Shown piece after piece: positions 2,974 through 61,821 of a DNA stretch of 64,000 nucleotides (position 1 is its first letter; every line of letters starts with the position of its first letter). The notes under the pieces were generated by a model. It saw nothing but the letters and a program-made list of their open reading frames with translations, was not told the origin of the DNA and did no database searches. The translations under genes were made by a program, and so were the position numbers. Source of the DNA: an uncultured Candidatus Saccharibacteria bacterium (GTDB taxonomy: Bacteria > Patescibacteriota > Saccharimonadia > Saccharimonadales > 2-12-FULL-41-12); assembly GCA_964521095.1 (NCBI GenBank), contig CAZFPJ010000002.1:85108-149107 (forward strand), read 5' to 3'.

Positions 2974-2994
2974 TGGTAGCGGGGGCAGGACTCG
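2974..2994 (-). repeat. 21-nt exact copy of the tRNA-Met 3' end (third copy)
   Basis: TGGTAGCGGGGGCAGGACTCG is identical to 3343-3363. In tRNA sense it is CGAGTCCTGCCCCCGCTACCA. Confidence 0.9.
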
Positions 2995-3161
2995 GTCACC
3001 TCCGGCGACCCCGTCGCAACATCTTTCAAAACAAGTTTTGAAGAGTTGACTCACTTGCGAACTGCCACCGGCAGTTCGCACCTCCGACCTTCTTAGCGTC
3101 GCAGGATGAATTAAACTCAGCACCAAGTAAAAGACCCCATCTTTCGATGAGGTCCGTTACT
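2995..3161 (-). mobile_element. candidate non-coding module, family 2, bounded by tRNA-Met 3'-end copies (miniature integrative element and/or structured RNA)
   Basis: Homologous to 56057-56215 next to tRNA-Arg. Shared hairpins: GCGAACTGCC/GGCAGTTCGC at 3057-3079, TTCAAAA-CAAG-TTTTGAA at 3025-3042, and GCGAC-CCC-GTCGC at 3005-3017. No credible ORF. Confidence 0.5.
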
Positions 3162-3179
3162 TGGTAGCGGGGGCAGGAC
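3162..3179 (-). repeat. 18-nt exact copy of the tRNA-Met 3' end (second copy)
   Basis: TGGTAGCGGGGGCAGGAC is identical to 3343-3360. In tRNA sense it is followed by a hairpin plus T-run (3154->3129) homologous to the tRNA's own terminator. Confidence 0.9.
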
Positions 3180-3342
3180 AGCGGGCTTCGCCCTTTTTCG
3201 CTTGTTCGCCAGAAAAATACCTCGTGCTTTCCTGGCTTCTCTGCGCTACACCGAACCTGTGGTTCGCTTGCGCTCACGCATCAGGTTCTCGTTCTAGCTC
3301 CGACAAAGAAAAAAGACCCATCCAAAGATGAGTCATTTTTCT
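3180..3342 (-). mobile_element. candidate non-coding module, family 1 (includes the tRNA-Met terminator hairpin at 3309-3334)
   Basis: Roughly 65-70% identical by eye over ~110 nt to the module downstream of tRNA-Lys(UUU), 31670-31797. Shared blocks: CGAGAACC, GGTTCGG, GCAGAGAA, GAAAGCAC, GGTATTTT. A 9-bp stem (3228-3236 / 3208-3216) covaries with its counterpart. Confidence 0.5.
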
Positions 3343-3417
3343 TGGTAGCGGGGGCAGGACTCGAACCTGCGACCTTGTGGTTATGAGCCACACGAGCTGC
3401 CGCTGCTCTACCCCGCA
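3343..3417 (-). tRNA. tRNA-Met (anticodon CAU), initiator-like
   Basis: 75-nt cloverleaf folded by hand: anticodon loop CTCATAA, T-arm GCAGG-TTCGAGT-CCTGC, encoded CCA. It has a 1:72 U-U mismatch and two G-C pairs next to the anticodon loop, resembling fMet tRNA. Confidence 0.85.
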
Positions 3418-6470: not shown

Positions 6471-9400
6471 CTAGAACCCAAACACTTTCTGGAGAGAGTT
6501 AAGGATGATTGTTAGCACACTGTCTGAAGCCCGCCCAATTATGGCAGATTGAGGTTCGCCCTGTCCGACATTGCCAGATTTATCTTTTGATAGTGGCTGA
6601 ATGCTGTAGACCCGTGATGTTGGCAGGTCGGAGACAATAACTATGTGTTCTGTGCCAAGGGCTACATCTTCGCTGGTTTTGTTGTTAAATACAGTTGTGT
6701 TAGATCCTTCGCCATAGGCTACTTGGCTAGAGGATGGTTCGTCGGTCTTCCAGGAGACTACTACTTGTCCACGAGCTTCTGCACCGGTGCCACGGATAGA
6801 TGTTTCGATTTGTACTTCACTAATTTTTGGTGGCCGGGTGTCGAGGGCCGTTTTGAATTGTTGGCGGTCTGATTCGGCTAGGTTGCCACTGCCATCACGA
6901 CTTTGGGCAATCAAGAAATATTCGCTATTATCTTCTAGGCCTCGCAAGATGAGTTTGTGATCGGTGGTTAGTTGAGAATCTTGAACATCGATACCAGCCT
7001 GGCCAACCTTGCCATAAGTTACCGTTGAAGTAGCAGGTACATTTGTAGTCCAGCTGACTTCTTGGGTGCTGGTTGGCTCTCCTGCTATTGGTTGGAATCG
7101 TAGGTCTAGTATCTTTGGTCGAGCAGGGGTGGTGAAGGAGGAAACACTGCCATCGTAAGAGTTGTCTTCTTTATCGTAGGCGACTAGTTTGTAGAAGTAT
7201 TTTGAGCCGTCCTCTAGGCCATCTATGCTAACTTCATAGGTTGACTCATAAGGCGAGGTGTTGATAGATTTTATGCCTCCAAAGCTTTCGCCTTTGCCGT
7301 ATAACACATCAATGCGACTAGCGTTTTTGCTGGTAAATCTAATAGAAGCATTTGCGAGCCCAACCTTTGAGGTGGTGATTTCTTTGAGCGATGGGGCAGG
7401 GGCAGTTTGGAAAGTAAATTCTTGGCTAGTACCTGTGTTGCCATCTTCGTCTGTCCACTTGGCAACATAGTAGTAGGTAGTGCCTGCGCTTAGGTTGTTT
7501 AGGTCTATTTGGTGCGAACTTACTTGGTCAGACGAGGCGATCTCTGAAGAACTATATTTTCCGCTGGCTGTCCCAATAGCTATCTTTGAGTCACTTGATC
7601 GGTCGGTACTCCAGCTGATGGTCGCTTTGCGGGTAGTTATGTTGGATACTTTTGGATCTGCAACCAGGGTTGCTGGAGAGGTGAATTTACCAGTTGGTAT
7701 CTGGTTGACTGTGGTGCTGTTAGACCCACAGTTGTTAGTGCTGTCACAAGCCGTTACTCGATAGTAGTATCTTTGCTGACTTAGGCCGGCGTCTATGTAG
7801 GTAGTGCTAGAGCTACTACCTACAAACGAGAAGCTGACATTGTTTGTAGAGCGGTATACCTTATAGCTAGATATGCCAGCACCGGTATAAGTTGGTGCAT
7901 CCCAAGTTAGAGCTAGGCGCCAGTTGTTGGTGGCCTTAATAGACACATCGACGATATCGGTATTTAGGGGTATACCTGGAGACGGAGTGTTGGCCGTAAA
8001 GTTGACGGACGAATAGCTACTGTAGTTGATGTTGTTGGACTCGTCTTTTGCAACAACATAGAGCGTATTAAGTCCAGGCTGGGTTGCATATGGCCCCGCC
8101 CCTAAACTAGTCGTGCCTCCGCTAGTAAAGGTACAGTTATTGGCGGACGGAAGGATGTTAACGGTGTAGCAATAGGTTATATTGTTGGCGTTACCAACAA
8201 AAGTAGCCGGCTGGTTCCAACTGAAAGAGAACGAGTTGGTGGTGTTAGTAGTTGGATTTGCTGTAACATTTTGCGGTTCGCTTGGGGCTCCAGAAGTATT
8301 GATTTTTATAGCTGCAGTTACATAAGAAGCCGTCACATTACCTGCTTGGTCCCATGTTCTGAAGTAGACGGTATTTACTCCCTCAGTCAGATTAGCGTGA
8401 TCCGGTGTCGTAATAGTTTGGTATGACCCGTCATTAGACAGCAGGTCATTCATGTCACCCGTACCGCTATGACTATCTCCGTACCAAACAGTGTTGCCGA
8501 TTTTATATTGGAGGCCGGCAAGCCCAGAGTTGGGGTCATCAGGTGCTCCACCGCCAGATGTTGGCCAAGTTAGCGTGACATCTTTGGTGTTAATAAACCC
8601 AGATGGCGCAGTAATGTAACTAGGGTTAGTTGGCGGGGTGTTGTCGAAGCGGAAGTGGAACTGAGTTGTGCCAGTAGTTACATTGCCAGCATTATCCATA
8701 GCTTTGATAGTGAGGTAATACGGTGAGTTGCCGGTTGCTAGAGCTGTTTGTATAGTGCCAGCAGTTGCTGTGTCTATGCTGTTAGTCTCTATTAGGAATT
8801 GACATCGTCCGCCATTATCGGCTGGACTGTTCCCCAGAATACCTTTTGTAGTAACCGGGTCGGCGGAGCCATCGGTTCCAAGGTAGAGGCAGTAGCCCTT
8901 TATGCCAGAGTCTGTATCGGTGCCTGCTGTCCAGGAGAAATATGGTGAGCTACCATTGGTCCAAGCATTTTGCGCCAAGCTAGAACCGCCAGACGCCTTG
9001 AGTGCTGTTATGTTGCTAGCGTTTGTGGCTGGCTCTACTAAATCAGAAGTTGAGGCTAGGGTTACGCTGTTTAGGGTTACGCGTTGGTCGCCATTGCTCT
9101 TTAATACAGCCTGCCACTTTATGCCACTAAGGGTGACAGGGAAGGTACTCATATTTGCGTCGGCTACCGATATGGGGTTGGCCTCGGTCGTGTTATTGGA
9201 ATCTGCCCAACTGCTACCATTCCAGAATTTCCAGGTGACCCCGTTATCGGCAGACAGTCGGTAAGTGATGTCGCCACCGTTAGCGGTTTCGTTGGCTGTA
9301 AGGTTATCCCAGTGCCAGACGCCGTTGATACGAACTGGGTTGTTGAGGGTTATGGTTTGGGCAGTTGTGCTGTATGGCTTGCTGTTGAAGCTCGGCCTTG

Positions 9401-12400
9401 CGATGTCACTAATCCGTACCTCGTCTAACTGCCCCTGGAAATATCCGCGTGATTTTCCTTGTTCTCGTCCACCCCAGCTAGCACCGACAAACATGTCTCG
9501 TGAGCTGTCTGGTATAGTTAAAGATTTAGCTTGCGACCCAACTTCGTTGCCATCGATGTACAGTTTCATAGTTGAGCCATTGTAGGTGGCTGCTACATGG
9601 TGCCAGCTAGTGTCAAAACTAGAGGTAGAGGACTGCACGAATCCATTGTCGCCCCAAGACCAGATAGAGTTATCTTCTGAGTTGCCACTAAGCCCGGTAC
9701 CGGCGTATAGTTTGCCTTTATAAGGACTCATTGACCTAACGGCTTCGACATTGCCATCCCAACCGTTATTCATGCTGTCACCACCAATTTGTGTCCAGGT
9801 GGAGCCATCAAACTGCCAAAGCTCTCCATCGCCAGCCGTTGTCCCTAGTCCGGCGTATAGTTTGCCATTGTATACAGCGAGCGAGTGGATATACTCGTAG
9901 GTGCCTGCACCCCAACTATTGTTAACCGATCCTGTACCGCCCCCAATTAGTTCCCAGCTAGAGCCGTCATAAGTCCATATTTCGGCATCCCCTGTACTGT
10001 CGCCAAGTCCTACTGCTAGTTTGTCACCAAAGTTAGTCATAGATCGTACGGTTTCATAGCTTGTATTCCAGCTAGAGCTAACTCCATCGCCACCAACTTT
10101 ATTCCAGGCACTTCCATTCCACCGCCAGACTTCGGCTTCTGTGGCCGAAGTGCCGATGCCGGCATAAAGCTCGCCATTATAAATACCTAGCGACGAAACC
10201 ATCTCGAAGTTGGCTGCCCAGCCATTATTTATGTTGTCACCGCCAATTTTATCCCACTGACTGCCGTCCCAAACCCATACTTCGGCGTCATTGGCCGAAG
10301 TGCCGATGCCGGCATATAATTTACCAGCATAAGACGCCATAGAGTAGACTCCTTCATAGTTGGCTGCCCAGCCATCGTTCATGCTGTCACCACCAATTTG
10401 CGTCCAGGTACTGCCATCCCACTTCCATACTTCGGCGTCATTGGCCGAAATTCCTAGCCCAACATACAGCTCGCCCCCTAGGCTAGCCATAGAGGTTACG
10501 GCTTCGTAAGAAAAAGCCCCCCAGCTATTGTTGACTCCTTGTCCGCCTATCATTTCCCAGTTGCTACCGTTGAATCGCCATACCAGGGCATTGCCTGCCG
10601 TAGCATAGCCGGATCCCGCATATAAATAATCTCCGACCCATTGCATGACCTCTACGCTTTGGAGATTGTAATATCCCCAACTTTTATTTATCCCATTACC
10701 ACCTATCTGTGTCCAGGCGGAGCCATTCCATGTCCACATTCGTCCAGTGCCAGCAGAGTCATAAGTTCCTGCATATACCGTGGAGCCACTACTACTTAAT
10801 GTAAATATTGCATCGCCTTCTGCTGTGTTCCAGCTAGAGTTCGCTCCATCACCTCCAACTTTATGCCAGATACTACCGTCCCATCGCCAGACCTCACCAT
10901 CCCCATCGCTACTGCCGAGACCTACAAATATATCTGTTCCATTGCTGGTGATGGAACTGACATACTCGTAGGTTGTGTTGGCCCAGCTAGAGTTAAGCGT
11001 ATCACCACCAATTTGTGTCCAGGTGGGCGAGCCACCATTGCAACCCGAACAGCGATATACATCGCCATCGCCGGCGCTGTCACCAGTACCTGCATATATA
11101 TAAGTGCCGTCATAGAACAGGCTTCGAACCATTTCGTAGTTAGCAGAAAAACCACTGCCGTTATCGGCAACCTTTGTCCACTGAGTGCCGTTCCATCGCC
11201 AGACCTCGGCTTCGTTAGCGGTAACCCCCAAGCCAACATATAGATTAGTGCCATCATTGGTCATAGAGTAGGCATATTCGTAGTTTGTTCCCCATCCAAG
11301 ATTAATGCTGTCACCACCAATTTTGCTCCAGCTGGAGCCATCCCATTTCCACACCTCGGCGTCGTTAGCACTTGCTCCTAGTCCGGCGTATAGATTTCCC
11401 CCAAAATAATCTAGCGAGTAGACACCCTCGTGTGTGCCAATACCCCAACTCCCTGGCGTATTGGCGTCACCACCAATTTTGCTCCAGCTACTACCATTCC
11501 ATCGCCAGACCTCTGCATCTCCGGCACCAGTACCGAGCCCCACAAAAACATTTGTGCCATCAGTTGCCATGCTTAACACATATTCATGTTCGCCAGACCA
11601 GCTAGAATTTACGCCGTCGCCCCCAATTTTACTCCAGGTGGAGCCACTATATTTGTATACTTCCGCATCTTTTGTGGCTACGCCGGTTCCAGCGTATACA
11701 TCACTACCGACCGTCACAGATGAGGATACGGCGTTTTTGCCATTTAAGCCCCAGCTACCGTTAACATCGTCGCCAGCGGATTTAGTCCAGCCGGTAGCTG
11801 AATTATTGGCAAGCTCGTAAGTTAGCTTGCCTGTTTCATTGTCAAAATACATCTGGTAGTCGCCTTTATCTACTATTGCCTGGCGTTGTTCGTGCGAGCC
11901 AGCTGAGAAGTTGGAGCTAAATTTAGTCCAACCTTCAATTGTATTGTTTTGCGAAAGTGAAAGAGAGGGCGAATCGGGCACAGATATCTTTGAGGTAGTG
12001 CCATTTAGGCCTAGAGCATTATTTAAGTTACCTGTTTGCCAACTCTCGTCTTTAACCGTTCCATCATTGTTGTTGGTGGAGCTGTCATGAACAGTAGTTC
12101 CGCTCGATTCATCTAGGTGAAAGAGGGCTTTGGTGTTAGCATCGTCAGAATAGTTCTGGGCCTTCATGCGCACGCTGTTACCACTGATCTCTAAGCCATC
12201 ATCTAGGCTATATTGGCTAGGGGTAGAAAAGTCCCAGTTGTCAAAAAGGTCAGATGCAGCCAAGACTCTAGATAGAGAGGCAAATAACATTGATCCGATG
12301 ACAATCATGTATACGCCAAATACTGCATAATGCACTCGCTTGTGTTTGTCCCACTCGTGCCAGGTTTTGTATTTAGAGTATTTATTGGACAAATGCAGAT

Positions 12401-12608
12401 GTGGTTTGTGGGCCAAGTAGTGATGCCAGTATTTGTACCATCGCTTAAGCATTATAGAGGTCCTACGCAAGGAGTAACGAGAAATTTTACTACCGTATAT
12501 CGTTACCCAAACGGTAAATTGAATAGCCAAACGAATAAATATCGCAGAATATTTTAGCAATAATCCCCACGATTTTTGAGCTACTAGTAAAAATTTTTGT
12601 CTCGACAT
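6471..12608 (-). CDS. giant membrane-anchored surface protein (LamG/ConA-like domain with nested beta-propeller repeats, then FN3/Ig-like domains)
   Basis: 2045-aa ORF. It has a basic W/H/K/Y-rich N-tail and a TM segment at about aa 93-117. LamG_3-like sequence is split into aa ~160-270 and ~1000-1072. About 14 repeats of ~50 aa follow the pattern AEVWxWxGSxWxxIGGDxxNxxW. The C-terminal half contains multiple FN3-like modules. The true start may be an internal Met (aa 53). Confidence 0.85.
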   Translation of the reverse strand: MSRQKFLLVAQKSWGLLLKYSAIFIRLAIQFTVWVTIYGSKISRYSLRRTSIMLKRWYKYWHHYLAHKPHLHLSNKYSKYKTWHEWDKHKRVHYAVFGVYMIVIGSMLFASLSRVLAASDLFDNWDFSTPSQYSLDDGLEISGNSVRMKAQNYSDDANTKALFHLDESSGTTVHDSSTNNNDGTVKDESWQTGNLNNALGLNGTTSKISVPDSPSLSLSQNNTIEGWTKFSSNFSAGSHEQRQAIVDKGDYQMYFDNETGKLTYELANNSATGWTKSAGDDVNGSWGLNGKNAVSSSVTVGSDVYAGTGVATKDAEVYKYSGSTWSKIGGDGVNSSWSGEHEYVLSMATDGTNVFVGLGTGAGDAEVWRWNGSSWSKIGGDANTPGSWGIGTHEGVYSLDYFGGNLYAGLGASANDAEVWKWDGSSWSKIGGDSINLGWGTNYEYAYSMTNDGTNLYVGLGVTANEAEVWRWNGTQWTKVADNGSGFSANYEMVRSLFYDGTYIYAGTGDSAGDGDVYRCSGCNGGSPTWTQIGGDTLNSSWANTTYEYVSSITSNGTDIFVGLGSSDGDGEVWRWDGSIWHKVGGDGANSSWNTAEGDAIFTLSSSGSTVYAGTYDSAGTGRMWTWNGSAWTQIGGNGINKSWGYYNLQSVEVMQWVGDYLYAGSGYATAGNALVWRFNGSNWEMIGGQGVNNSWGAFSYEAVTSMASLGGELYVGLGISANDAEVWKWDGSTWTQIGGDSMNDGWAANYEGVYSMASYAGKLYAGIGTSANDAEVWVWDGSQWDKIGGDNINNGWAANFEMVSSLGIYNGELYAGIGTSATEAEVWRWNGSAWNKVGGDGVSSSWNTSYETVRSMTNFGDKLAVGLGDSTGDAEIWTYDGSSWELIGGGTGSVNNSWGAGTYEYIHSLAVYNGKLYAGLGTTAGDGELWQFDGSTWTQIGGDSMNNGWDGNVEAVRSMSPYKGKLYAGTGLSGNSEDNSIWSWGDNGFVQSSTSSFDTSWHHVAATYNGSTMKLYIDGNEVGSQAKSLTIPDSSRDMFVGASWGGREQGKSRGYFQGQLDEVRISDIARPSFNSKPYSTTAQTITLNNPVRINGVWHWDNLTANETANGGDITYRLSADNGVTWKFWNGSSWADSNNTTEANPISVADANMSTFPVTLSGIKWQAVLKSNGDQRVTLNSVTLASTSDLVEPATNASNITALKASGGSSLAQNAWTNGSSPYFSWTAGTDTDSGIKGYCLYLGTDGSADPVTTKGILGNSPADNGGRCQFLIETNSIDTATAGTIQTALATGNSPYYLTIKAMDNAGNVTTGTTQFHFRFDNTPPTNPSYITAPSGFINTKDVTLTWPTSGGGAPDDPNSGLAGLQYKIGNTVWYGDSHSGTGDMNDLLSNDGSYQTITTPDHANLTEGVNTVYFRTWDQAGNVTASYVTAAIKINTSGAPSEPQNVTANPTTNTTNSFSFSWNQPATFVGNANNITYCYTVNILPSANNCTFTSGGTTSLGAGPYATQPGLNTLYVVAKDESNNINYSSYSSVNFTANTPSPGIPLNTDIVDVSIKATNNWRLALTWDAPTYTGAGISSYKVYRSTNNVSFSFVGSSSSTTYIDAGLSQQRYYYRVTACDSTNNCGSNSTTVNQIPTGKFTSPATLVADPKVSNITTRKATISWSTDRSSDSKIAIGTASGKYSSSEIASSDQVSSHQIDLNNLSAGTTYYYVAKWTDEDGNTGTSQEFTFQTAPAPSLKEITTSKVGLANASIRFTSKNASRIDVLYGKGESFGGIKSINTSPYESTYEVSIDGLEDGSKYFYKLVAYDKEDNSYDGSVSSFTTPARPKILDLRFQPIAGEPTSTQEVSWTTNVPATSTVTYGKVGQAGIDVQDSQLTTDHKLILRGLEDNSEYFLIAQSRDGSGNLAESDRQQFKTALDTRPPKISEVQIETSIRGTGAEARGQVVVSWKTDEPSSSQVAYGEGSNTTVFNNKTSEDVALGTEHIVIVSDLPTSRVYSIQPLSKDKSGNVGQGEPQSAIIGRASDSVLTIILNSLQKVFGF
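9639..11795 (-). repeat. coding tandem repeats (~150-nt period, ~14 units) inside the giant gene
   Basis: Recurrent W-x-W-x-G-S-x-W..IGGD blades at aa 318, 368, 420, 470, 518, 574, 625, 677, 728, 778, 828, 878, 931 and 983. Some blades share DNA strings, e.g. GGCCGAAGTGCCGATGCCGGCATA at ~10143 and ~10293. Confidence 0.8.
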
Positions 12609-31551: not shown

Positions 31552-31627
31552 GGGCCTGTAGCTCAGTTGGTAGAGCAGCGGCCTTTTAAGCCGCGTGTCC
31601 CGGGTTCGAGCCCCGGCGGGCCCTCCA
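31552..31627 (+). tRNA. tRNA-Lys (anticodon UUU)
   Basis: 76-nt cloverleaf: anticodon loop CTTTTAA, T-arm CCGGG-TTCGAGC-CCCGG, encoded CCA. Confidence 0.9.
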
Positions 31628-31629
31628 AT

Positions 31630-31797
31630 TTTAGTACCCCTCGCCCAAGAGGGGTTTTAAAATTGGAGAATTTATCCGAGAACCCGAGCCTGCGCTAGCA
31701 GGGGTTCGGCGTAGGCGAGCAGAGAAAAGAAAGCACCTTGGGTATTTTCTTTTCGAGTGAGCCGAAGGAGCGACCGAATGTAATGAGGGAAAGCGAT
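31630..31797 (+). mobile_element. candidate non-coding module, family 1 (includes terminator hairpin 31636-31658)
   Basis: Lies between two exact 20-nt copies of the tRNA-Lys 3' end. Homologous to 3180-3342. Contains a 9-bp stem GAAAAGAAA (31724-31732) / TTTCTTTTC (31746-31754) with loop GCACCTTGGGTAT. Confidence 0.5.
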
Positions 31798-31817
31798 GCC
31801 CCGGCGGGCCCTCCAAT
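31798..31817 (+). repeat. 20-nt exact copy of the tRNA-Lys(UUU) 3' end
   Basis: GCCCCGGCGGGCCCTCCAAT is identical to 31610-31629. Confidence 0.9.
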
Positions 31818-31844: not shown

Positions 31845-31966
31845 GATTGGGAGATCTTGTAGAGATTCGAAGCTGGGACACGCAGTGTCTCGGGTGGAAT
31901 TGGATTATCTCAGTATCTCAACTCAGCCAATTCATAGACAAACCTAAGTTCTGATAAAATAGACAG

Positions 31967-33439
31967 ATGAAGCTACCGTCTGTTAATTTTAGGCGAACTA
32001 CGCTACTGCTTGCCGGATGTATTAGTTTGCTTGTTGGGCTGGCTGTGTCTCGCCTAGATCTGGTAGGTATACATATAGTCTGGATTTTGCTGTCTATGGT
32101 TTTTGTCATTGCAAGCTGGCGCAATAAAAATATCATTACGCTAATGTTTTTGGTGATATTTTGTTTTTTAGTTGGCTTGTGGAGAGGCCAGCAGTTTTTG
32201 GTTTATACCGAACAGTACAACACGCTTTTTGATCAGAAGGTAACACTAGTTGGAGTAGCAAAGAGCGACGCTATCTATGGAAAAAACGGACAGCTTTCTT
32301 TTGACATGGGGGATCTTGAACTAACCAAGCCACAGGCAGATAGCCTGGTTGGAACAATCAGTGTTAGTGGGTATGGAGAAAATACAATTTACCGAGGAGA
32401 CAAATTGCAGGTAGAGGGCAAGCTTCGCAGGACATTAGGGTCAAAGCAGGGTCGGATAAGTTTTGCTAATTTATCGATAATCAATAAGACCGCATCACCC
32501 GTGCAGAAAATTCGTAGTAAGTTTGCCTCGGGCATGTACAATGCTGTTCCAGAACCTGAAGCGTCTTTTGCGTTGGGGTTGTTGATTGGCCAGCGAGATA
32601 CTTTGCCAAAAAATACTAGTGACATATTAAAGATTGTGGGGCTAACACACATTATTGCTGTGTCTGGTTACAATTTAACTATTCTGGTCAGGGCTGCCCA
32701 ACGAGGGTTTGGAGGTCGTTCGAAGTACCAAGCAATACTGGTTGCAACAACTCTAATTTTGGCATTCCTAGCGGTTACGGGGTTAAGTGCCTCTATAGTC
32801 AGGGCCTCCATAGTTTGCTCTCTTGGGCTAACAGCCTGGTATTTTGGCAGATCTATTCGGCCAACGCTCTTAGTAGCCCTGTCGGCAGTAATTACGGCAC
32901 TATGGTATCCGATATATCTGTGGTCAGATATTGGTTGGTACTTATCGTTTTTAGCTTTTTTTGGGGTGCTGGTATTGGCTCCTTTAATTGCCCAGAGAAT
33001 ATGGAAGCCAGACAAACAAGTTTCTACAATCAATCTCTTGATAGTGGAAAGTTTTTGTGCGCAGATAATGACTATCCCAATAGTTCTATTTATATTCCAC
33101 CAAACTTCGTTAGTTGGTTTGATGGCTAATATTTTGGTTATTCCCCTAATACCGCTAGCAATGCTACTGGGTTTAATAGCCGGGATAGCTGGAGTGTTTG
33201 TGCCTGCTGTTGCCGGGTTTATAGCTTGGCCAGCAACTATCCTTCTGACTTACATATTGGATGTAGCTAGAGTTTTATCAAGAGCCCCACATGCCCAGCT
33301 GGGAGCAAGCTTGACAGTATTTGGAGTAGTATTTTTATATGGAGTTTTGCTATTTATATCGTGGGTCTTATACCATAAACTCAAGAGAGAACATGGTATA
33401 ATTAGGCAGAATAATTTTGAAGAAACGATAGGCTGGTAA
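31967..33439 (+). CDS. comEC: DNA internalization channel ComEC/Rec2 (no metallo-beta-lactamase domain)
   Basis: 490-aa polytopic protein. DUF4131-like N-terminus and competence domain (GLTHIIAVSGYNLTIL). It ends before any MBL domain. Confidence 0.8.
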   Translation: MKLPSVNFRRTTLLLAGCISLLVGLAVSRLDLVGIHIVWILLSMVFVIASWRNKNIITLMFLVIFCFLVGLWRGQQFLVYTEQYNTLFDQKVTLVGVAKSDAIYGKNGQLSFDMGDLELTKPQADSLVGTISVSGYGENTIYRGDKLQVEGKLRRTLGSKQGRISFANLSIINKTASPVQKIRSKFASGMYNAVPEPEASFALGLLIGQRDTLPKNTSDILKIVGLTHIIAVSGYNLTILVRAAQRGFGGRSKYQAILVATTLILAFLAVTGLSASIVRASIVCSLGLTAWYFGRSIRPTLLVALSAVITALWYPIYLWSDIGWYLSFLAFFGVLVLAPLIAQRIWKPDKQVSTINLLIVESFCAQIMTIPIVLFIFHQTSLVGLMANILVIPLIPLAMLLGLIAGIAGVFVPAVAGFIAWPATILLTYILDVARVLSRAPHAQLGASLTVFGVVFLYGVLLFISWVLYHKLKREHGIIRQNNFEETIGW

Positions 33440-56034: not shown

Positions 56035-56056
56035 TGGTACCCCGGGAGGGACTCGA
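56035..56056 (-). repeat. 22-nt exact copy of the tRNA-Arg(UCU) 3' end
   Basis: TGGTACCCCGGGAGGGACTCGA is identical to 56216-56237. Confidence 0.9.
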
Positions 56057-56215
56057 CCCACCTTCGGCAGGCCCGAAACTTCGCTATTGAAAACAAGTTT
56101 TCATCGGAAGATTTCCTTGCAAACTGCCACTGGCAGTTCTCACCCCGACTTTACGGTCGGAGGTTCATCTTGCAATCAATATAAATTTACTGGCCAAAAG
56201 GCCACAGAATTTACA
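56057..56215 (-). mobile_element. candidate non-coding module, family 2
   Basis: Homologous to 2995-3161. Shares AACTGCC-ACT-GGCAGTT (56122-56138), TGAAAA-CAAG-TTTTCA (56088-56103), and a hairpin TTCGG-CAGGC-CCGAA (56063-56077) at the position of GCGAC-CCC-GTCGC. Confidence 0.5.
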
Positions 56216-56292
56216 TGGTACCCCGGGAGGGACTCGAACCCCCGACCTTGACGTTAGAACCGTCTTGCTCTAATCCACTGAGCTACCGGGGC
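56216..56292 (-). tRNA. tRNA-Arg (anticodon UCU)
   Basis: 77 nt: anticodon loop GTTCTAA, T-arm GGGGG-TTCGAGT-CCCTC, encoded CCA. Confidence 0.85.
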
Positions 56293-61348: not shown

Positions 61349-61425
61349 GCACCGGTAGCTCAGCGGATTAGAGCATCTGTCTTCGGAACAGAGGGTCGGG
61401 GGTTCGAATCCCTCCCGGTGTACCA
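61349..61425 (+). tRNA. tRNA-Arg (anticodon UCG)
   Basis: 77 nt: anticodon stem-loop TCTGT-CTTCGGA-ACAGA, encoded CCA. Confidence 0.85.
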
Positions 61426-61426
61426 T

Positions 61427-61503
61427 GGGCCAGTAGCTCAGCTGGTTAGAGCACCTGCCTCTTAAGCAGGGTGTCGAGGGTTCGAGTCCCTCCTGGCCCT
61501 CCA
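61427..61503 (+). tRNA. tRNA-Lys (anticodon CUU)
   Basis: 77 nt: anticodon stem-loop CCTGC-CTCTTAA-GCAGG, encoded CCA. It starts 1 nt after the end of tRNA-Arg. Confidence 0.9.
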
Positions 61504-61506
61504 AAA

Positions 61507-61671
61507 ATAGAACCGCCTTCCTGGCGGTTTTGTTTTTGGAACGCTTAAGGAAGAAAGCCAACTGCTTGGCTTTTGTGGGACTCGAACAGGCGGAGCGATG
61601 TCGAGCAATTCAGCGAGACCGCGAGCCGGGGTCGACAGCGAAAAGCAAAGCTTTTCGACTGGTGACTCGAA
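61507..61671 (+). mobile_element. candidate non-coding module (divergent; includes terminator 61511-61537)
   Basis: Lies between two exact 22-nt copies of the tRNA-Lys(CUU) 3' end. It contains an inverted copy of the T-loop region (GGGACTCGAAC, ~61578-61588) and the hairpin CGAAAAGC-AAA-GCTTTTCG. It shares the motif CAGnGAAAAGnAAAGC with family 1. Confidence 0.45.
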
Positions 61672-61693
61672 AGTCCCTCCTGGCCCTCCAAAA
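61672..61693 (+). repeat. 22-nt exact copy of the tRNA-Lys(CUU) 3' end
   Basis: AGTCCCTCCTGGCCCTCCAAAA is identical to 61485-61506. Confidence 0.9.
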
Positions 61694-61697
61694 TATG

Positions 61698-61724
61698 AAC
61701 TCCCCAAGAGGGAGTTTTTATTTT
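61698..61724 (+). terminator. intrinsic terminator after the repeat copy
   Basis: AACTCCC-CAAGA-GGGAGTT followed by TTTATTTT. An outer clamp pairs CTCCAAAATA with TATTTTGGAG. Confidence 0.65.
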
Positions 61725-61821
61725 GGAGCAGTGTGCTTTAGAACGCCCGACACGCCAAAAGGGCGTCGAGTCCCTCCCCTGATCGAATATGCCAGGATAG
61801 ACTCAAATCTAACTTGATATA

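Follow-up and report, generated by a model that had tools for sequence, protein, structure and literature searches.

A duplicated tRNA-Lys 3' end in a Saccharibacteria genome bounds a non-coding, RtT-like unit that is probably an insertion module

Introduction

What is the DNA that lies between two copies of the 3' end of a tRNA gene, and how did it come to be there? The question is raised by the tRNA-Lys(CUU) gene in the stretch of DNA analysed here (64,000 nt; hereafter the window). Its last 19 nt, together with 3 nt more, recur exactly 187 nt downstream. A sequence-only reading of this locus had proposed a 22-nt duplication of the tRNA 3' end, a terminator behind each copy, an inverted T-loop fragment in the insert and a third, degenerate copy.

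In Escherichia coli, 178-bp repeats (RtT; RF00391) are found at tyrT and tyrV, and rtT is annotated as a small RNA, rttR. The rtT RNA is processed from the tyrT transcript. RtT has stood alone since the 1970s as a curiosity of enterobacteria, and to our knowledge neither its origin nor its function is agreed upon. Coverage of tyrT-rttR is raised in exonuclease-resistant "mobilome" DNA of E. coli K-12 under stress (10.1101/2024.07.17.603846). Partial tRNA copies left by integration events are common (PMC9897764). In the tRNA islands of Prochlorococcus, newer arrivals displace older ones distally and the remnants decay (bioRxiv 10.1101/2020.12.28.424599).

Results and Discussion

The repeat at tRNA-Lys(CUU)

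The duplication is exact: AGTCCCTCCTGGCCCTCCAAAA occurs twice (Table 1), and its expectation in 100 shuffles was 0 matches, even at 3 mismatches. The hairpins that follow the copies are themselves related, so that the similarity extends over 56 nt (75% identity). The hairpin arms, which include the tRNA end (61500-61517/61523-61540 and 61686-61704/61710-61728), are each 89% complementary. Both hairpins were called by the terminator scan, as proposed; the clamp of the first, however, is TCCAAAAA/TTTTTGGA and ends in GGA, not GGAG. The 11-mer GGGACTCGAAC is indeed the exact reverse complement of GTTCGAGTCCC (61480-61490), but it is not found at the start of the insert. The picture of a 165-nt insert beginning with this 11-mer had to be given up: the terminator comes first, and the 11-mer lies 71 nt in. 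The third fragment, TCGAGTCCCTCC (61766-61777), was recovered inside an 18-nt match (61761-61778).

The locus is present beyond a single assembly, the region being reproduced in three independent ones. Two Logan assemblies (L001 and L127) are identical to the window from 61447/61449 to 63768 and beyond. A DRR830121 contig from another study, 99.4% identical, begins 8 nt before copy 2 and spans copy 2, the second hairpin and the third fragment. An assembly artefact at tRNA-Lys is excluded by these independent assemblies. Short-read assemblies (L001-L004, L127, L128) break within the tRNA-Arg/tRNA-Lys genes or at copy 2; one likely cause is that the same tRNA sequence occurs in many of the sampled contigs.

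Table 1. Features of the tRNA-Lys(CUU) locus and of the related units (positions are those of the window).
Feature	Positions	Strand	Basis
tRNA-Arg(TCG), leading gene of the Arg-Lys tRNA pair	61349-61425	+	ARAGORN; Rfam tRNA 67.2 bits
tRNA-Lys(CTT), CCA encoded, proposed target gene	61427-61503	+	ARAGORN; Rfam tRNA 72.2 bits
Repeat copy 1: T-loop end, T-stem 3' strand, acceptor 3' strand, CCA and AAA	61485-61506	+	Exact 22-mer
Clamped terminator T1: stem pairs back onto the tRNA CCA end, flanked by A-tract and T-tract	61500-61540	.	Inverted-repeat search; terminator scan; clamp test
Family C core, 131 nt, non-coding, predicted structure	61541-61671	+	nhmmer relatives; alignment A2; fold z = -3.15
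Conserved hairpin AAAGCCAACTGCTTGGCTTT, breaks the inverted retrace of the tRNA 3' end	61553-61574	+	Fold; alignment A2; gapped palindrome alignment
Inverted T-loop/T-stem 11-mer GGGACTCGAAC, predicted 5' strand of closing helix	61577-61587	+	Inverted-repeat search; conserved in A2; helix 6/6
Repeat copy 2 (to CCA at 61672-61690); predicted 3' strand of closing helix; probable displaced older tRNA end	61672-61693	+	Exact 22-mer; fold; helix kept in family
Clamped terminator T2, probable opening part of the next, older unit	61686-61728	.	Inverted-repeat search; terminator scan; clamp test
Putative remnant of a family B-type unit: inverted variable-loop/T-arm piece (61735-61756), AAAA turn, direct GGGCGTCGAGTCCCTCC (61761-61777)	61735-61778	+	BLAST
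Family A unit, 188 nt, behind tRNA-Lys(TTT)	31628-31815	+	Repeat search
Family A unit, 181 nt, behind tRNA-Met(CAT)	3162-3342	-	Repeat search; 43-nt palindrome arm
Family B unit, 188 nt, stacked after the Met family A unit	2974-3161	-	Repeat search; R1 112.5 bits
Family B unit, 181 nt, behind tRNA-Arg(TCT)	56035-56215	-	Repeat search; R1 127.7 bits

Sister units and common anatomy

Units of 181-188 nt are found at four of the seven ends of tRNA transcription units in the window. The 3' end of tRNA-Lys(TTT) (31552-31627, +) occurs twice, 188 nt apart, and that of tRNA-Arg(TCT) (56216-56292, -) twice, 181 nt apart; the 3' end of tRNA-Met(CAT) (3343-3417, -) is present three times, at spacings of 181 and 188 nt. 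These units belong to two families, A and B (Table 1), and within the window the insert at tRNA-Lys(CUU) matches neither.

The order of parts is common to the units. A terminator hairpin, its stem reaching onto the CCA, comes first, and an inverted retrace of the tRNA 3' part comes next. Behind these lie a brief stretch of variable loop and T-stem 5' strand in direct orientation, the core, and then the remainder of the tRNA from the T-loop through the 3' strands of T-stem and acceptor to CCA. The inverted piece makes up the outer portion of an extended, imperfect palindrome with the terminator loop at its centre. The 43-nt arm of this palindrome in the Met unit has a score of 41.5 (shuffle maximum 33); in the unit behind tRNA-Lys(CUU) the palindrome is broken by the conserved hairpin (gapped palindrome alignment). 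The flanks correspond to whichever tRNA (Lys, Arg or Met) lies next to them, and cores are common to different tRNAs: the family B core was found behind Lys, Arg and Met tRNAs, each time with flanks of the local tRNA.

Unit C and its family

The 22-nt repeat bounds one non-coding module of ~187 bp, unit C (61504-61690). It had been suggested that the insert might be a third family or an older member. The former was borne out by five nhmmer relatives in other contigs (L055, L061, L084, L086, L114), which with the window insert make up a family C of 6 members only. Assignment to this family is based on nhmmer similarity across the core, the conserved GGGACTYGAAC and the closing helix. The covariance model of family B (R1) gave unit C 11.6 bits (61568-61690; E ~0.05), mainly over the flanks, compared with 112-155 bits for genuine B units, and unit C falls outside family B by this model. 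The alternative of an older member is not favoured: the flanking repeats are perfect and the insert adjoins the tRNA, and the decayed unit is the distal one. No credible ORF was found in unit C. A coding insert was also considered and rejected, the overlapping ORFs not being conserved and the family members differing by indels that include 1-nt gaps.

Pairing of the inverted T-loop segment with the repeat, also part of the sequence-only reading, is predicted but unproven. A GGGACT:AGTCCC helix is present in the minimum-energy fold of the sense strand of unit C (z = -3.15) and is kept in 6/6 family C members. The inverted 11-mer is invariant in alignment A2 at G41, G43, A44, T46, A49, A50 and C51; the pairs of the closing helix never vary, and covariation therefore cannot prove the pairing. 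In the neighbouring helix, three pairs show double changes. When the sequences are read directly, GGGACTCGA of the window is opposite TCGAAAGTCCC in the helix, and in L055 GGGACTTGA is opposite TCAAAGTCCC, a single compensated position.

A probable core-less remnant behind unit C

The window runs from T1 through unit C and copy 2 to T2, and then to a family B-type flank pair that has no core. By BLAST, this pair (61735-61778), which includes the third fragment, aligns with sequence flanking B units on their 5' side in L049, L058 and L008; its R1 score is 8.9 bits. Reading it against L092 and L008 suggests a family B unit whose core has gone from between two TCGAG repeats. An intact C unit at the tRNA and a decayed B unit distal to it fit the entry of units adjoining the tRNA, the order known from the tRNA islands of Prochlorococcus.

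A second core-less hairpin is found at 31864-31895, after the family A unit of tRNA-Lys(TTT) and its clamped terminator. It is built like the third fragment, from an inverted and a direct piece of the tRNA-Lys(TTT) variable loop and T-stem.

Filled and empty sites in other genomes

A scan of metagenome contigs for the tRNA-Lys 19-mer gave 120 loci, most of them with the same tRNA-Lys. At least 21 of the ~99 assessable tRNA-Lys loci carry a unit within 330 nt, at copy spacings of 126-201 nt; the count is a minimum, as several further loci hold unclassified variants. Units of families A and B are also found behind tRNA-Lys(CTT) in these contigs. A clamped terminator follows the tRNA at 21/21 unit-bearing loci vs 11/78 others. 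Past the last copy, the trailer is of the unclamped native type in 13/13, as in empty loci. Since the native trailer is displaced behind the last copy, the units are insertions: each separates the tRNA body from the flank native to it. Empty loci form the majority at tRNA-Lys, and empty and filled alleles both exist, a presence/absence polymorphism.

The locus in one contig (L092) is orthologous to that of the window, with synteny on either side (MurB, an HTH gene, tRNA-Arg, tRNA-Lys). Behind its tRNA-Lys lie a terminator and a B unit that is intact, without the C unit. A scan of a genome collection with MurB returned one distant uncultured Candidatus Saccharibacteria MAG (61% identity), and homologues of the downstream 148-aa ORF drop from 100% to 72% identity; no isogenic empty allele was obtained by either route. 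No circular or excised form was seen in the contigs.

The 148-aa ORF encodes a membrane protein with homologues in L130, L131 and L132 (68-69% identity), where the neighbourhoods are unrelated and no tRNA is nearby. A further homologue, in L072, comes after an array of units. The ORF may itself be movable cargo.

Genes carried with units

Some units carry genes. A P-loop kinase gene lies between the tRNA and a B unit in L119, and genes for an APH and a zeta-like kinase lie between two B units in L032. ORFs are found ahead of the C units in L086 and L114, the latter ORF being, as we take it from reading its sequence, YoeB-like. In L072 small ORFs and units form an array.

No recombinase was detected in or beside the units: the 10 ORFs flanking tRNAs of the window had housekeeping or no Pfam families, and a crude motif regex found no XerC/D-type box-II in 812 ORFs from the DNA ~10 kb around sites.

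Folding and transcription

The structure of family B was studied with an alignment of 18 sequences, using RNAalifold and a pair count. The structure has 39 pairs, and 93.7% of the cells are paired, vs 33-46% in slid-partner controls. Double changes, on both sides, were found in 28 of the 39 pairs, and 0/500 shuffles attained the observed value on any of five measures. In the tally of pair types on the sense strand, G-U was counted in 44 cells vs 17 for A-C, and one pair is G-U in 14/18 sequences; from this excess, the folded strand in family B is the tRNA-sense strand. The outermost helix is the T-stem itself, so that the core behaves as a large T-loop insertion in a 3' tRNA fragment. The flank helices are complementary and show no covariation. 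On these comparative grounds, a covarying structure on the tRNA-sense strand can be taken as established for family B only.

An RNA product of the units is suggested by the strand bias and by the E. coli precedent. No promoter-like site was found and a strong terminator precedes each core; both count against strong expression of the core.

Comparison with RtT and other elements

The units resemble RtT in architecture. Both are located directly behind a tRNA, on the same strand. The unit is ~180 nt long and can be tandem (187 nt here; 181 + 188 nt in tandem behind tRNA-Met). It ends in a tRNA copy running from inside the T-loop to CCA (AATCCTTCCCCCACCACCA in E. coli), and a degenerate direct variable-loop/T-stem piece is followed by a structured core in the place of the T-loop. 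In the Rfam consensus structure a closing helix is formed by the 3' copy and an inverted piece upstream of it; the predicted GGGACT:AGTCCC helix of unit C is its equivalent. In the E. coli tyrV-rttR region the inverted piece is GGGGAAGGAT and the direct one CGACCAAGGTTCGA, with the core and then the 3' copy behind them; the tyrT-rttR region of E. coli K-12 is L126, 1285800-1287500. However, RF00391 scores 133-137 bits on E. coli and gave no match on the Saccharibacteria-like units at E <= 5-10; a match of >= 45 bits was absent from the units tested (the present one, the Met units and eight related loci). With the same architecture and no model match, the resemblance to RtT is therefore architectural and not one of family membership. 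The Saccharibacteria-like units further differ from RtT in opening with a clamped terminator, in comprising at least three core families at several tRNAs, some with genes, and in their Saccharibacteria-like (CPR) host.

Rfam scans of the same units and loci (gathering threshold; E <= 5-10) returned only tRNAs, and the sole non-tRNA match was RtT in the E. coli control. A group I intron was considered and rejected, as no intron family was matched in these scans, nor any ribozyme family. Published Patescibacteria tRNA introns are at position 35/36, not in the T-loop. A tmRNA was likewise rejected: ARAGORN found none in the window, and the only Rfam tmRNA match, of 9.9 bits, lay over tRNA-Arg.

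The units share with CIMEs and MITEs, non-autonomous elements that are moved in trans, their small size, the absence of coding capacity, the many copies and polymorphism between genomes. They differ in having neither terminal inverted repeats nor short target duplications, and in unit boundaries that are tRNA-derived and site-specific.

Origin of the units

We consider the units to be stacked, non-autonomous, RtT-like insertion modules, with a probability of about 0.6. By its insertion, a module would have separated the body of tRNA-Lys(CUU) from what was once the 3' end of the gene. The unit would bring a new 3' end and terminator, so that the tRNA stays intact, and the old 3' end with its native trailer would be pushed distally. 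New units would enter adjoining the tRNA, which would make unit C the younger and the third fragment an older, decayed family B unit. Entry may occur by recombination within the segment from T-loop to CCA, and the agent may be a recombinase encoded elsewhere or host recombination acting on incoming DNA; the latter is a possible route because a ComEC-type competence gene adjoins one unit. Replication template switching at the terminator hairpin would be an alternative route. Read-through transcripts may be cut back at the CCA copies to a ~185-nt RNA, in the manner reported for E. coli rtT; pairing of the inverted T-loop with the 3' copy would close this RNA. The architecture, its recurrence, polymorphism, the displacement of trailers, shared cores with local flanks, stacking and gene-carrying versions were all directly observed. 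Flanks that match the tRNA on both sides of the core, including an inverted copy, are not predicted by a simple attP x attB crossover.

The rivals that matter are a resident RNA gene and an integron-like single-stranded-DNA site. According to the former, which we judge unlikely but credible, a unit is a resident small-RNA gene of RtT type, for which the tRNA-end copy only supplies a tRNA-type 3' end, and units multiply by unequal crossing-over or replication template switching, not by mobility. The covariation fits the sense strand, E. coli rtT carries an sRNA annotation, and no recombinase was found; the direct-inverted-direct order and the palindrome at the terminator loop, with its 43-nt arm in the Met unit, correspond to the product of two template switches. 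A resident gene accords poorly, however, with one core family behind different tRNAs and different families behind the same tRNA, with the many empty tRNA-Lys loci, with the displaced native trailer, with genes carried between a copy and its unit, and with the terminator ahead of each core. It is very unlikely, in our estimation, that the units are integron-like cassettes in which the core is an analogue of attC folded as single-stranded DNA, with the inverted T-loop as R'' and the T-loop as R'. The order of 3' end and terminator, optional ORF, structured site and crossover agrees with such cassettes, and so do a structured, imperfectly palindromic site at the distal cassette end, a structure conserved more than sequence across families, and arrays with empty cassettes and, in some, toxin, antitoxin, resistance or kinase cargo, integron cargo being rich in toxin and resistance genes. 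Yet no integron integrase (IntI) was seen in a crude motif screen, which covered DNA to ~10 kb around the sites, nor was attI or Pc found. The units are anchored at a tRNA gene, the repeat is 19-22 nt vs 6-7 nt, and the core is located inside the T-arm instead of between R and L boxes. It is the bottom strand that is folded in integrons, whereas the strand that folds here is the cargo's sense strand, as the G-U excess over A-C indicates for family B.

Two further explanations start from the tRNA gene itself. Relic attL and attR sites of an integrase-bearing island or prophage with a deleted interior are a highly improbable source. The direct repeats do correspond to the tRNA 3' part beginning in the T-loop, the intact tRNA lies at one end, empty and filled alleles exist, and the native flank has moved to the distal repeat. 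The T-loop start is reportedly a classic sublocation of integrases, and partial tRNA copies are a common trace of integration. As in the tRNA integrative elements (tycheposons) of Prochlorococcus, partial tRNA copies form the boundaries, the element restores the tRNA, newer arrivals would push older ones distally, and remnants decay. Tycheposon-type elements, however, are kilobases long and encode tyrosine recombinases; the units are ~185 bp, without a recombinase and with a conserved structured core. Unit C encodes no integrase by its ORFs, its neighbours or the motif screen, and no integrase remnant was seen. The uniform length (166-201 nt over at least three core families) and the conserved, covarying cores also argue against relics. 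The C and B cores had no blastn match in phage records, and viral contigs gave 0 matches to the Lys 19-mer or the family B core pattern. A decayed tandem duplicate of the tRNA-Lys gene is almost certainly not the answer. A full tandem tRNA-Lys duplication does exist in L068, and 3' end and terminator are duplicated together in the window; but the core is unlike the 5' two-thirds of the tRNA, holds an inverted tRNA piece instead and is common to loci in other genomes. The Rfam tRNA model matches the real gene only, and no graded intermediates between tRNA and core were seen among the 120 loci.

Going beyond insertion modules, a broader reading can be offered as speculation that we think quite unlikely to hold: tRNA genes of Patescibacteria may anchor a so far undescribed platform for the capture of genes and RNAs, in which the structured element, with T-arm pieces in sense and antisense, would specify the target for a trans-acting recombinase, and E. 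coli RtT would be a stranded relative. Small cassettes would stack behind the tRNA, and the element would act as RNA or as folded single-stranded DNA. If true, it would be a target-matching recombination site, with a logic like that of integron attC or guide-bearing recombination RNAs.

Significance

No description of these units was found in the literature searched, which was thin in subscription-journal papers. The kind is known from RtT. What is new is that it occurs in this phylum, comes in several core families, opens with a clamped terminator, shows a clear signature of insertion and can bring cargo. With the same architecture in a distant phylum, the origin and function of RtT are now testable by comparison, for which several core families, different tRNAs, signs of insertion and occasional genes are also at hand. 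Family B is a well-supported structured element absent from Rfam, with 28 covarying pairs. For ultra-small bacteria that are naturally competent, the units suggest that tRNA 3' ends are hot spots of gene flux on a small scale. In practical terms, units break assemblies at tRNAs, and they may be miscalled as partial tRNAs.

Other observations

A ComEC-type competence gene (31967-33439, +) is located right behind the tRNA-Lys(TTT) unit of the window, which is relevant if units arrive on transforming DNA. Two adjacent small ORFs (1997-2437 and 2449-2874, -) with a common stretch of 146 nt at 91% identity follow directly behind the two Met units. They may be cargo; Pfam gave nothing for the one tested. 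A 2045-aa ORF (6471-12608, -) has internal repeats with periods of ~150 and ~306 nt.

Variant arrangements were found in other contigs. In a Saccharibacteria MAG (L005, 15212-15485), a near-perfect 5' part of tRNA-Arg(TCT) runs directly into a family B core (R1 65.7 bits), after which come a T-loop piece, its inverted copy and the intact tRNA, the mirror of the window arrangement. The 3' copy of a B unit in L008, ~190-230 nt past the first 19-mer, is split between T-stem and acceptor strand by a 22-nt near-palindromic insert (ACGGCATGTCGCCATGGCATGC). Near 11630 of L124 the 3' copy of a B unit ends abruptly after AGTCCCTCCTGGAC. One ORF, which may or may not be from L124, looks by its sequence like an IS66-family transposase. 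What is duplicated in tandem in L068 (1981-2460, oriented) is the full tRNA-Lys(CTT) gene together with its leader, and an ORF of 113 aa separates the two copies.

The motif GTTGC(A/G)A(T/C)AGCG, followed after ~7 nt by (T)GGCCCTCCA, the last 10 nt of tRNA-Lys, was found on the tRNA-sense strand at ~28 sites in the metagenome loci and is absent from the window. The sites include L008 at 1683, 2826 and 3464, and two each in L032, L072, L096 and L097. The motif is mostly located just past an ORF stop, with a native-type trailer behind it, and seems to be another boundary site, of shorter length, for gene cassettes stacked at tRNA-Lys(CTT).
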